From the NCBI RefSeq assembly GCF_030013205.1, contig NZ_CP122648.1: DNA of 64,000 bases; one strand, 5' to 3'. The position numbers are program-made. Shown here in pieces: positions 58,701-61,700 of the stretch (its first letter is position 1; each line of letters begins with the position of its first letter). The DNA comes from Escherichia coli. GTDB lineage: Bacteria > Pseudomonadota > Gammaproteobacteria > Enterobacterales > Enterobacteriaceae.

Positions 58701-61700
58701 ATGGCGAAGGTAAAACTCGAGGCAATTTGTCTATCCTGAAAAAATCAATGGCTACAAATCAGGCCTGTTGCAATGTTGAGATTGATTCTGATAAAGCTGA
58801 TTATGAATATGTTTATTATTTTTTAAAGACACAATATGATGAGCTTCGCCAGCTATCTTCCGGTGTTAGAAAAAACCTTAATTCTAACGATATAAAAAAC
58901 TACCCTATTCGTTTGCCATCCTCTCTGGACGAACAACGAAAAATTGCCTGTGTATTAAAAGTATTAGATGACAAACTTGCTCTCAACAACCGCATCAACG
59001 CCGAACTGGAAGCGATGGCGAAAACGCTGTATGACTACTGGTTTGTACAGTTTGATTTCCCTGATGCCGACGGAAAACCGTATAAAACCTCCGGCGGTAA
59101 GATGGAGTATAACGCCACGCTGAAACGGGAAATTCCGGCGGGGTGGAATGACTCCATTCTTGGTAAGTTTATTGAGTTAGATCGTGGCGTTACTTATAGC
59201 AAAGAGGATGTTCGAACTCAGGATGATAAAGATACGATAGGCATTCTTCGCGCTACAAATGTGACGGGAAATAATGTTGATATTGATGATTTAGTCTTCA
59301 TTCCTTCTAGTAGAGTAAACGTTAATCAAATGCTAAATAAATTTGACATATTGATCGTGATGTCAAGTGGTAGTAAGGAGCATGTAGGGAAGAATGGCGT
59401 GTATTATTTCGAAAAAAAACATGCATTTGGCGCATTTTGTTCAAAAATTACACCCGTCAGAAAATACAGATATTTTATAAATACATTCCTGCAATCGAAA
59501 TGGTTTAAGTCTTATATAAACAATCAGTGCTTGGGAACTAATATTAATAACCTGACCAATACGCATATCACTAATTGTGAAATCATATGCCCCACTCCTG
59601 ATGTTGTGGCGTTATTCGAGAATAAAATGATGCCAATTTATAATAAACTGGCATCAAACACTCAAGAGAATAGTCATTTAATCCAACTCCGCGACTGGCT
59701 CCTCCCTCTACTTATGAACGGACAGGTCACGGTCAAATAATCCCCGGCGTGGTTTTGCGAGGCGCATTCCAGATCCGCATTGCGCCGCACTCACCGCAGC
59801 AAAACCGCTTGCCGTTCATAACCGATCGCAGTATCTTTCTCCCGCGCCTGCAAAATCAGGCGTCGGGATTAGCCTCCTGAAAACCGTTACAGGCGACACT
59901 TGACGCACCAGCGTCTTTTTTGTGTCGTGCGTTCGGCTACACCTCAATGGCGGGCCGGGCGGGGGCGTCGCAAGACGCGCCGGTTTCCTGTAACGCCGGT
60001 AAGGCTAACCCCGTCCGGTTCCGCCCCCATGAGATTAGCCTCTCTAGTGGCGGACATAATAAACCGTTACAGGAGACGCCCTATGGCTACAATCCTCATC
60101 TCTGACTGCGATTTACTCGATCTATTGTCCGCTCCCTTCAATGCCACCACGGATTTCACCGTCCTGGCCGACTACTGCGCCCGCTTCGCCGAAACCCTGA
60201 TAGAAACCGACGATCCGGCGCTGCGGCTGGCGCTCTGCGGACGGCTTCACGCGGCTCTTGCGCTATTGCAACCCACGCTGCACGACCCCATCCCGCCGCA
60301 TCTGATTGAAAGCCTGACCGTTGATACCCTTCCCGCCACACCAGAGCACTTTATTTCCGAACCAGATTCCTTGTGCGAATACTGCCTCGCGCTGCTCCAG
60401 CTACTGCTGGAACGTCCAGCAGAGCCAAAAACGGAACAAACCCTGACCGGGCTTCTGTGTGAGCTGGTCTGGAATTTCACGGAAGGACTCAAATCCCCGC
60501 GCTGGCTGCGTACCGCCGACGGCGTAAAATTTATCAGTGAGGTGGCCGCATGATGCAACAGGACTGACATTCCGCCAACATTATTGCGGTGCTGAAAAAG
60601 CGGGGAACGCCTCTGGCGGCACAGAGAAAAACTCATTGCGGAAGCGCTGTAAATATCGCCAGAAATCATCTGGTCCTCAAGGTACTTTGATAGCAAAGGC
60701 AAGCAGGCTGGTTCAGTCCAGTGTTTCTCTTCTTGCATTTTCAGAAATGGGAGGCTGGGAGTCTATCGAAATGGTTCGTCGATATGCTCACCTTGCACCT
60801 AATCACCTTACCGAACACGCACGGCAAATAGACTCAGTCCTGAACCCATCGGTCCCAAATTTGTCCCAGTCAAAAAATAAGGAAGGTACTAATGATGTGT
60901 AACTTATTGATTTAAATGGTGCCGATAATAGGAGTCGAACCTACGACCTTCGCATTACGAATGCGCTGCTCTACCAACTGAGCTATATCGGCCCTGAAAG
61001 GACATGTTCACGAACGTGAATCACGGTGGACAAGGTTAAAACTAACCGGGCGATGCGTCAATGGCCTTGTGAATCAAATGGCTACTTTTGCATCACCCGG
61101 TTTTATTTACGCACGAATGGTGTAATCACCAATGCCGATCCACTTGTAAGTGGTCAGTGCTTCCAGCCCCATTGGGCCACGCGCGTGGAGTTTTTGTGTG
61201 CTTACCGCCACTTCCGCACCCAGACCAAACTGGCCGCCGTCGGTAAAACGCGTAGAGGCGTTAACGTAAACAGCGGACGAATCCACTTCGTTAACAAAAC
61301 GCTGGGCGTTGCGCATATCGCGAGTCAGGATCGCATCGGAGTGTTGCGTGCCGTGTTCACGAATATGGGCGATGGCATCGTCAAGATCGCTGACGATTTT
61401 GACGTTCAAATCTAATGACAGAAACTCATCGTCATACTCTTCCGCTTTAACAGCCACCACCTTCGCGGGGCCTGTCTGCAACTGCGCCAGTGCACCTGCA
61501 TCAGCGTGTAACGTCACGCCACTTTCCGCCATTTGTTTGCTTAATGCGGGCAGGAAACTATCGGCGATGTTTTTATTCACCAGCAACGTTTCAACCGTAT
61601 TACATGTGCTCGGTCGCTGAGTTTTCGCGTTGACGATCACTTTTAATGCTTCAGCGATCTCCGCGCTTTCATCAACGTAAATATGGCATACGCCTATACC

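Follow-up and report, generated by a model that had tools for sequence, protein, structure and literature searches.

The window, a stretch of 64,000 nucleotides (64 kb) of Escherichia coli DNA, carries three copies of a bipartite motif, TTAGCCT…CGTTACAGG, in the region between the hsdS stop codon (59740) and an ORF starting at 60083. Two copies are direct (59869-59893 and 60035-60073, + strand) and one is inverted (59987-60008, - strand), and they correspond to the two exposed loops of a C4 antisense RNA of phage type together with the pair of sites that it targets, an RNA switch that has been described already. The triad very probably represents an entire antisense-RNA module of C4 type, like those in the P1/P7 immI region and in the immunity system of P4 (CI RNA/seqA/seqC). 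The module, which is unannotated as an RNA switch, lies inside a decayed E. coli defence island and before a conserved gene of no assigned function. The cargo (a 156-aa family, not icd or ant) sets the locus apart from P1 and P4, the switch itself being known. The locus is an ordinary C4 switch, a further example of its class in a setting that is less common, with its function in this strain presumed from that of its relatives.

The motif triad and the C4 antisense RNA

The pattern TTAGCCT-N(4-30)-CGTTACAGG gave three matches against 0.00 expected from 100 dinucleotide-preserving shuffles, and the 9-mer CGTTACAGG alone occurred five times in the whole 64 kb, where 0.42 would be expected, with three of the five in the triad region. 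A repeat search returned direct units GATTAGCCTC at 59867 and 60033 and AAACCGTTACAGGnGAC at 59881 and 60061, together with inverted arms at 59983-59995 and 60002-60013. The inverted copy falls within a C4/CI-type antisense RNA gene at 59943-60031 (+ strand), which matched Rfam RF01695 over its full length (1-87) with 71.8 bits against a gathering score of 45. This match, like that to the isrK family described below, was found twice, in a local scan and in a scan of the whole window. If its ends correspond to those annotated for P1 c4, the mature RNA would extend from about 59949 to about 60028.

The C4 RNA has a minimum free energy (MFE) of -50.3 kcal/mol and a folding z of -3.97, with a long closing stem around two hairpins, and 16 of the 28 pairs in a consensus fold of 20 homologues showed compensatory changes. 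Two recognition elements are left unpaired: b′ (UCCUGUAACG, 59986-59995, + strand), which forms the 10-nt loop of hairpin 2 and is free in both the MFE and the consensus folds, and a′ (AGGCUAA, 60002-60008, + strand), which lies in an 8-nt single-stranded bulge on the 3′ side of the RNA. The b′ element includes CCUGUAACG. In the window C4, the closing stem starts from a non-canonical U-C at its base, and the ...CCACC 3′ motif has lost an A that all of the other 21 modules possess; the atypical stem base and the missing A could affect processing. An invariant U precedes the predicted 5′ G of C4 in the 22 modules, and by analogy with characterized members of the group C4 would be excised, with RNase P acting at the 5′ end, to a stable RNA of about 77-80 nt acting in trans.

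In RefSeq, the same region is annotated as an “ash family protein” (59947-60105; Pfam PF10554, 30.4 bits). As a coding gene this candidate was rejected, since 8 of the 22 modules contain in-frame stops; in addition, the frame of the ORF from its invariant ATG varies relative to the next gene (0, 1 or 2). The similarity to the Ash family is accounted for by conservation of the RNA gene. The main value of the analysis is one of annotation, in that the RefSeq “ash family protein” is a C4 RNA gene; several phage records similarly bury the C4 RNA in an N-terminally extended “transcriptional regulator”.

Leader, target boxes and covariation

Upstream of C4 the window contains an IsrK-like leader or short sRNA (59844-59921, + strand), which matched Rfam RF01394 (isrK) over its full length (1-77) with 68.0 bits against a gathering score of 50 in both scans. 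It consists of a 5′ hairpin, a second hairpin presenting the a1 box, a single-stranded b1 box and an intrinsic terminator at 59902-59921 (+ strand; GACGCACCAGCGTC followed by TTTTTT), the last of these being detected in a terminator scan and agreeing with the terminator hairpin of the isrK model. The c4-a1b1 family (RF03163), which overlaps the leader at 59831-59883, scored 43.8 bits, just below its cut-off of 46.7, with the boxes present. A putative sigma-70 promoter was read from the sequence at 59809-59837 (+ strand), with -35 TTGCCG (59809-59814), a 17-nt spacer and -10 TATCTT (59832-59837), matching 8 of 12 consensus positions; a consensus promoter scan found no strong promoter upstream of the module and did not list this candidate. 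Its predicted transcription start (about 59844) coincides with the start of the IsrK model match, a TAnnnT hexamer (-10) occurs at the same column in the 22 modules, and a second E. coli allele at thrW becomes homologous to the window exactly at CTTGCC, the -35. Position and conservation are the basis for naming 59809-59837 as the putative promoter of the module.

The C4 loops have complementary boxes on both sides of the RNA and on the same strand. In the leader, a1 (TTAGCCT, 59869-59875, + strand) is complementary at 7/7 positions to C4 nt 60-66, i.e. to a′, and b1 (CGTTACAGG, 59885-59893, + strand) at 9/9 positions to C4 nt 45-53, i.e. to b′, with a b1:b′ duplex energy of -13.6 kcal/mol. 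Downstream, a2 (TTAGCCT, 60035-60041, + strand) is complementary to a′ at 7/7 positions and b2 (CGTTACAGGA, 60065-60074, + strand) to b′ at 10/10, with a duplex energy of -17.4 kcal/mol for b2:b′. The b2 box overlaps the Shine-Dalgarno sequence AGGAG (60071-60075) ahead of the ATG at 60083, and it sits on the ribosome-binding site in all 22 modules.

This complementarity was further examined in an alignment of the 22 homologous modules that had not been fitted to the structure. Pairing was found in 98.6% of cells for a1:a′, which covary, and in 97.2% for a′:a2, and for both b1:b′ and b2:b′ seven of nine pairs were compensatory across homologues. Taken together, a1:a′ and b1:b′ were 93.5% paired (68.5% when shuffled and 31-47% when slid) and a′:a2 and b′:b2 were 91.3% paired (66.5% and 26-44%, respectively), with 12 of 16 pairs compensatory in each case; the observed covariation score was reached by none of 500 shuffles. 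The box sequences thus vary among the 22 modules yet remain complementary across all three copies (91-94% of cells paired). The second E. coli allele (strain RIVM_C037791), which shares the thrW site and is about 92% identical overall, has CTTATCGG instead of CGTTACAGG as b in all three copies, and a Salmonella orthologue has TTGACCT as a in all three. The concerted change of all three b boxes in the sister allele argues for selection acting in the lineage. Of 5,426 complete E. coli genomes, 541 contain the module at an identity of 99% or higher and 883 carry at least 80% of it. Strain K_EC180 is one example with an identical locus.

Most of what the preliminary description had claimed about the layout was therefore borne out: two direct copies and one inverted copy lie between hsdS and the ORF, the last copy overlaps the ribosome-binding site, and the inverted copy can pair with either direct copy, b′ over 9 nt with b1 and over 10 nt with b2. 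The folding and covariation analysis that it had proposed across homologous islands likewise favoured a structured RNA, and the repeat arrangement, the lack of which it had named as evidence against its reading, recurs in all of the related islands and phages examined. The layout agrees nearly base for base with the annotated immI region of P1, and P4 bears the same module.

The putatively regulated gene and the decayed downstream operon

The gene following the module (60083-60553, + strand) encodes a 156-aa protein annotated as “hypothetical” (WP_000201175.1). The preliminary description had called it an orphan, but it belongs to a conserved enterobacterial family of 153-156 aa with 608 homologues across Enterobacterales; the gene is intact, and its dN/dS values of 0.10-0.37 indicate purifying selection. 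In all eight further loci scanned, the isrK and C4 module is located directly upstream of the family gene. The protein gave no match in Pfam, PHROG or NCBIfam, and its identification as an Icd or antirepressor homologue was discarded on this ground. A tblastn search against phages returned a single match, to a fragmentary 1.5-kb record, and none to P4. The AlphaFold model (pLDDT 84.9) is a helical bundle for which Foldseek retrieved only generic four-helix bundles among PDB and viral models, none at E ≤ 0.001, and an exhaustive search for distant relatives (178 clusters) gave no link to a named family.

In relatives, the usual order is the 153-156 aa gene, then a Ner/SfsB-like regulator and then an integrase. 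In the window, the regulator is an HTH_35 pseudogene remnant (60608-60703, + strand), as annotated by RefSeq in a 100% identical genome, and the integrase is reduced to a C-terminal tyrosine integrase pseudogene (60699-60902, + strand; RefSeq, with a weak Pfam Phage_integrase match of 22.9 bits). Intact HTH_35 genes (73-84 aa) are present in relative loci L016, L019, L021, L024, L026 and L027, the L016 protein resembling SfsB (NF007670, 115 bits, below the cut-off of 150). The island is bounded by its integration site, the tRNA-Thr gene thrW (60920-60992, - strand; Rfam tRNA 71.8 bits, RefSeq), beyond which lie proA and proB; a search of the window for another att repeat that would mark the far end of the island found none, and the EFASI RNA has been lost. 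Intact relatives of the island are located next to tRNA genes and carry P4-type integrases with an Arm-DNA-bind_3 domain. The literature found on this island family consisted only of general descriptions of the C4, c4-a1b1, STAXI and EFASI motifs. Given the two pseudogenes and the loss of the EFASI RNA, the regulatory logic may be vestigial.

Proposed mechanism and comparison with known systems

In P1, P7 and P4, the C4-type RNA is cut from the same transcript and acts in trans and in cis, and in P1 and P4 the C4-repressed mRNA is subject to premature Rho-dependent termination. How the window RNA is processed, whether it acts in trans and with which sign it regulates, and whether the module is active in this strain, would be expected to follow these and other characterized homologues. 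The weak promoter (about 59809-59837) may thus start transcripts near 59844, most of which would end at the terminator (59902-59921) to give a short IsrK-like RNA with a1 and b1. Read-through transcripts would hold C4 (about 59949-60028), which, as in P1 and P4, would be excised, its 5′ end being cut by RNase P, to yield a stable species of about 80 nt that keeps loop b′ and bulge a′ single-stranded. These elements would pair with a2 (60035-60041) and b2 (60065-60074) on the read-through mRNA, the b′/b2 duplex masking the AGGAG Shine-Dalgarno sequence and leaving the 156-aa gene (ATG 60083) untranslated; by analogy with P1 and P4, such an mRNA would likely be prone to premature Rho-dependent termination. 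By analogy with Gifsy-1, where this was shown for IsrK, a1/b1, in cis or as the free short RNA, may compete for the C4 loops and relieve the block.

The preliminary description had suggested that pairing between the copies produces alternative leader structures that hide the ribosome-binding site. The occlusion holds in principle, but alternative leader structures are too unspecific an account, the inverted copy being the b′ loop and a′ bulge of a known C4/CI-type antisense RNA. The reading closest to this idea is a chiefly positive switch in the manner of IsrK, in which a1/b1 and a′/b′ lock an inactive fold in cis and the free short RNA activates translation in trans. Such a cis switch was demonstrated by compensatory mutations and native gels at the homologous Gifsy-1 locus (PMC4825925), and the window has the same short-RNA terminator and complementarities; we nevertheless regard it as rather doubtful as the principal mode here. 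The Gifsy-1 study took the C4 region as coding “orf45”, and the corresponding ORF in this family is the stop-containing, variable frame described above; moreover, a cis switch is compatible with the C4 explanation and does not exclude it. Another possibility, to which we give less than even weight, is that the same RNA mainly causes premature termination of leader transcription, following the seqA/seqC logic of P4, and not a translation block. The a1/b1 site is separated from C4 by the IsrK terminator, P4-type integrases occur in intact relatives of the island, and P4 carries the same isrK and C4 pair, with a CI RNA that works by termination, as discussed in PMC4825925. However, b2 in P4 is also on the Shine-Dalgarno sequence of the next gene, so that termination and translation block are not mutually exclusive, and none of the P4 hallmark genes alpha, epsilon, sid, delta and psu is annotated in the island. 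In identical or near-identical genomes the same genes are not annotated anywhere between paoD and thrW, and an identity of the island as a P4-like satellite was rejected.

Two further readings depart from a working RNA switch. An array of sites at which a protein of the integrative element binds DNA (for example a repressor, an integrase at its arm sites or a recombination directionality factor), also put forward in the preliminary description, is highly implausible. Two direct copies and one inverted copy could form an operator, and co-variation between islands would also be expected if the protein that binds such sites changed; but the inverted copy falls exactly on the unpaired elements of a covariation-backed fold in a curated family, the third copy is on the Shine-Dalgarno sequence in every homologue, and the distance between half-sites is 9, 6 or 23 nt depending on the copy, in keeping with flexible RNA pairing but not with a protein footprint of constant size. 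In addition, the P1, P7, P4 and Gifsy-1 homologues are RNA-based by experiment. That the module is a non-functional relic, the surviving edge of a deleted mobile element, appears improbable, although the HTH_35 and integrase pseudogenes, the deleted EFASI RNA, the failure to find a second att repeat and the atypical C4 stem base are all in its favour: complementarity remains perfect in all three boxes, purifying selection acts on the 156-aa gene, which is intact, and both the near-identity of the module in 541 genomes and the concerted b-box change in the sister allele speak against decay.

If the C4 reading is extended to the wider family, the switch might serve not just the immunity of phages and satellites but also as the resident control of a widespread family of integrase-linked defence islands in Enterobacterales, with the 156-aa protein as a new counterpart of Icd or of an antirepressor, for instance as a trigger of excision or of cargo expression. 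This is a speculative extension that we consider rather unlikely. The island order would then be variable defence cargo, promoter, IsrK, C4, the 153-156 aa protein, the Ner/SfsB-like HTH_35 regulator, the EFASI RNA and the integrase, and the fast concerted change of the a and b boxes would mark mutual “heteroimmunity” between competing islands. The finding leaves the known mechanism of C4 control unchanged. Recognition of the C4/IsrK switch nonetheless opens an experimental approach to a conserved gene that lies at the constant border of the thrW defence-gene hotspot, and adds natural examples of antisense specificity boxes diversifying in concert.

Among known systems, lambdoid/Stx, SfV, sal3 and APSE phages share about 70-72% nucleotide identity with the window over the module in 196 phage records, and the APSE-7 record already has annotations for isrK, C4, a′ and b′. 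The module is followed by Ant or BRO-N antirepressors in these phages, whereas the 156-aa gene has no phage homologue save the 1.5-kb fragment. The Gifsy-1 locus isrK-orf45(STnc1160)-anrP has the same succession as the window of a short terminated sRNA with a1/b1, a processed RNA of about 80 nt and a regulated gene. Its IsrK RNA binds Hfq and activates translation of the downstream gene in trans, and the 80-nt STnc1160 is processed from the read-through transcript (PMC4825925). The Gifsy-1 target is the antirepressor AnrP, which switches on the AntQ antiterminator, in contrast to the 156-aa protein of the window, and the “orf45” frame is not conserved in the window's family.

P4 has the same isrK and C4 pair (74.9 and 60.8 bits), again with b2 on the Shine-Dalgarno sequence of the next gene, and PMC4825925 describes how its CI RNA arises from the leader by processing and base-pairs with seqA and seqC. 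The spacer from seqA to CI is about 100 nt longer than in the window, and the gene after CI is Icd-like (NF033153) and leads into the epsilon/alpha replication operon, neither of which is present in the window. The P1/P7 immI region shows the same order (a1, b1, C4 with b′ loop and a′ bulge, a2, b2) in the same orientation. Start-to-start spacings in P1 and the window are, respectively, 14 and 16 for a1 to b1 and 29 and 30 for a2 to b2, and in either case about 10 nt separate the end of b2 from the start codon. In P1, C4 and Icd regulate ant expression, according to the statement on the imm region in PMC8201110 (citing Citron & Schuster 1990). In place of the downstream icd and ant of P1, the window has the gene for the 156-aa protein and the remains of a Ner/SfsB-like regulator; NF033153 is matched both by P1 Icd and by the P4 ORF, the 156-aa protein matches no such family and no ant gene follows, and without icd or ant the locus was not assigned to the P1 immI operon (c4-icd-ant). 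The window further differs from P1 in having no C1 operator (nothing resembling the P1 Op51 repressor operator was identified), in a leader with an IsrK-type terminator and in its location in a chromosomal island and not in a plasmid prophage. P1/P7 c4 and the window RNA nevertheless belong to the same family by covariance model, with the box sequences as a specificity code that differs among relatives.

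The motif triad and its RNA families

The preliminary description had placed two direct copies and one inverted copy of a bipartite motif (TTAGCCT-N(4-30)-CGTTACAGG) between hsdS and the following ORF, and this triad is a real feature, far from chance. The copies at 59869-59893 (+), 59987-60008 (−, inverted) and 60035-60073 (+) gave three matches to the full pattern against 0.00 expected from dinucleotide-preserving shuffles, and a repeat finder recovered the same units. A wider motif search, also proposed there, found the 9-mer CGTTACAGG by itself five times in the 64-kb window (0.42 expected), three of them within the triad. 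The third copy is longer (CGTTACAGGA, 60065-60074) and does overlap the AGGAG Shine-Dalgarno (60071-75), seven bases upstream of the ATG at 60083.

The triad is a textbook C4/CI/IsrK antisense module, identified at once by family scan. A local Rfam scan gave two full-length plus-strand matches, an isrK-type RNA at 59844-59921 (68.0 bits, gathering score 50) and a C4 antisense RNA at 59943-60031 (71.8 bits, gathering score 45), both recovered in the whole-window scan at gathering thresholds; the Rfam c4-a1b1 motif scored 43.8 bits, slightly under its cut-off of 46.7. On folding, C4 takes the family structure (-50.3 kcal/mol, z = -3.97), and the inverted motif copy coincides precisely with its two unpaired elements on the plus strand, b' (CCUGUAACG, 59986-59995) in the 10-nt loop of hairpin 2 and a' (AGGCUAA) in an 8-nt 3'-side bulge. 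It follows that the direct copies are a1/b1 (upstream) and a2/b2 (downstream). A terminator scan placed an intrinsic terminator (59902-59921, +) between a1/b1 and C4. The closing stem of the window C4 has a non-canonical U-C at its base. In place of the CC(A/G)CCACC of the 21 other modules compared, the window has CCGCCCCC and so lacks the A of the 3' CCACC motif; these changes may affect RNase P processing or stability of the RNA. A separate Rfam match, IS009 RNA (187.8 bits, 41670-41870, −), lies between ykgJ and yagU and is unrelated to the module.

Concerted change in the pairing boxes

Covariation across homologues, suggested in the preliminary description as a check, was assessed in 22 modules (the window, 9 chromosomal relatives, 11 from 10 phage loci, two of them from PPyecE_EH1910, and P1) aligned by MAFFT with no fitting to structure, intermolecular pairs then being counted. 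For a1:a' plus b1:b', 93.5% of cells held standard pairs compared with 68.5% when shuffled and 31-47% when the partner was slid, with both-sided changes in 12 of 16 pairs and a covariation score of 0.629 vs 0.176 (matched by 0/500 shuffles). Values for a':a2 plus b':b2 were 91.3% paired, 66.5% shuffled and 26-44% slid, with compensatory changes again in 12 of 16 pairs and a score of 0.583 vs 0.148 (0/500 shuffles). The C4 fold itself showed compensatory changes in 16/28 pairs among 20 homologues.

The b box reads CGTTACAGG in the window, CTCACTG in E. coli EFF60, GTTAGTG in P1, GATCAAGG in SfV, GTTATCGG in sal3, CTAAACAGG in APSE-7 and GAAAAAGG in phi345, the change being present in all three copies in nearly every module examined (partial exceptions: VT2-Sakai, EH2201 and the b2 copy of EFF60). 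The Salmonella orthologue has a boxes TTGACCT/AGGTCAA/TTGACCT. The most telling case is L029, a sister E. coli allele at the same thrW site (~92% identical overall), with b boxes CTTATCGG/CCGATAAGG/CTTATCGG (the counterpart of window b' at ~1680-1690), differing from the window in all three copies in concert (CGTTACAGG vs CTTATCGG) with the same a box; from sequence comparison, the two alleles seem to represent a natural switch of specificity, cf. P1 versus P7.

Sites of a co-evolving protein would likewise co-vary, and the preliminary description had considered an array of protein-binding sites. Inverted DNA sites read by such a protein are nevertheless excluded because the inverted copy falls on the RNA elements left unpaired by folding, the half-site spacing is unequal (9, 6 and 23 nt), the third copy is invariably placed over the Shine-Dalgarno, and experiments on the homologues speak against it.

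Apart from the box pairings, TCCGCC (60020-60025, 3' strand of the C4 closing stem) is also complementary to GGCGGA (60049-60054), which lies in the a2-b2 interval. The helix that could result would put a2 in a hairpin loop of the unprocessed transcript, and its pairing is kept in 91.4% of cells in the 22 modules (32-63% when slid), with a few compensatory changes (CACCACC/GGTGGTG and P4 GCTATCGCC/GGCGATAGC).

The downstream gene, its island and the ‘ash’ annotation

The ORF at 60083-60553 (+), initially called an orphan, is a real gene: its 156-aa product has 608 homologues in Escherichia, Salmonella, Klebsiella, Enterobacter, Raoultella, Citrobacter, Dickeya, Pectobacterium and Brenneria, with dN/dS of 0.10-0.37, and the isrK and C4 pair lies directly upstream of the family gene in 8/8 further loci scanned. 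The family is narrow (178 clusters among 1.8 billion representatives), and searches of Pfam, PHROG and NCBIfam gave no match. The protein is confidently modeled (pLDDT 84.9) as a helical bundle with a small beta-hairpin, for which a structural search gave no informative neighbor. An Icd-like identity was ruled out, whereas the P1 and P4 ORFs at the equivalent position are Icd-like.

RefSeq also annotates a 52-aa ‘ash family protein’ at 59947-60105 (+), on the C4 RNA gene, with matches to Pfam PF10554 (30.4 bits) and several PHROGs labeled ‘transcriptional regulator’. Read from the invariant ATG, this ORF has in-frame stops in 8/22 homologous modules and a variable frame relative to the next gene; it was thus rejected as protein-coding, and the ‘ash’ family is apparently an artefact of RNA conservation. 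The observation extends to L002 2132-2968, L003 2138-3280 and L014 8168-8584. SfV orf37, sal3 gp057 and the historical P4 ‘cI 137 aa’ CDSs likewise span isrK and C4. Two features of the module are of modest interest: its unusual regulated gene and this systematic mis-annotation.

In intact relatives, the gene after the 156-aa one encodes a 73-84 aa HTH_35 protein similar to SfsB/Nlp. An integrase gene beside a tRNA comes next, often with an EFASI RNA (Rfam RF02957, 99-119 bits) between the HTH_35 and integrase genes, as at L013 5609-5736, L016 9733-9861, L021 9300-9429 and L027 7345-7478. Both of these protein genes are pseudogenes in the window, and the EFASI segment is deleted; a second att repeat was not found within the window. 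Such partial decay of the operon would suit a module that is a pure relic, but all three boxes are perfectly complementary, the 156-aa gene remains intact under constraint, and 541/5,426 complete E. coli genomes carry the module at 99% identity or more.

The cargo upstream differs by strain and species, as seen on comparing ~47900-59740 with loci L004, L029, L016, L019, L021, L024, L025 and L026: AbiEii/AbiEi and hsdRMS (type I R-M) in the window, a 1,069-aa reverse transcriptase in E. coli RIVM_C037791, DarTG and hsdMS in Dickeya and Pectobacterium, AbiE and TacAT in Klebsiella, a PLD-helicase in Raoultella and Rhs in another E. coli locus. The module is therefore the constant, thrW-proximal edge of a defense-gene hotspot. 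Right after the hsdS stop, 59747-59808 forms a long imperfect palindrome (GGTTTTGC...GCAAAACC around GGCGCATTCCAGA/TCCGCATTGCGCC) without a U-run, not in the sister allele with different cargo, which may be the hsd transcript end or a cargo junction.

Proposed regulation and relation to known systems

A putative weak plus-strand promoter (-35 TTGCCG 59809-14, 17-nt spacer, -10 TATCTT 59832-37) matches 8/12 consensus positions. It was not listed by a consensus promoter scan but is supported by the TAnnnT hexamer, conserved in the 22-module alignment, and by two E. coli alleles with differing upstream cargo, whose homology begins exactly at the -35. By homology with known systems, transcription from this promoter would start where the isrK model begins, terminated transcripts giving a short RNA with a1/b1 and read-through transcripts including C4. 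Pairing of C4 with a2/b2 (predicted duplex energies -17.4 kcal/mol for b'/b2 and -9.3 kcal/mol for a'/a2) would cover the 156-aa gene's ribosome-binding site, the loss of translation would favor premature termination, as in P4, and the a1/b1 copy would compete for the same C4 loops. RNA pairing that hides the ribosome-binding site, as first proposed, was the right kind of mechanism, but the inverted copy is the loop and bulge of a known C4 antisense RNA.

The annotated P1 genome has the same order as the window (a1, b1, c4, a2, b2 and the icd start codon), with start-to-start distances of 14 nt (16 nt in the window) from a1 to b1 and 29 nt (30 nt) from a2 to b2, and b2 ending ~10 nt upstream of the start codon in both. 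Satellite P4 also matched the isrK and C4 pair (60.8 and 74.9 bits), at what is its seqA/CI RNA/seqC immunity region. At ~70-72% identity, the module is shared by 196 phage records, chiefly those of Stx and lambdoid phages, SfV, sal3 and APSE, in which an Ant or BRO-N antirepressor follows it; the APSE-7 record already has annotations for isrK, C4, a' and b'. The c4 antisense RNA and c4-a1b1 motifs were listed by Weinberg et al. 2010 (PMC2864571), and the P4 CI RNA, homologous to C4, is made by processing of a primary transcript (PMC4825925). In Gifsy-1, the short RNA IsrK is a trans activator of translation, and a read-through transcript gives rise to the ~80-nt processed species STnc1160 from ‘orf45’, which is conserved in nucleotide and variable in amino-acid sequence (PMC4825925). 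Compared from this published description, ‘orf45’ would correspond by layout to the C4 RNA gene.
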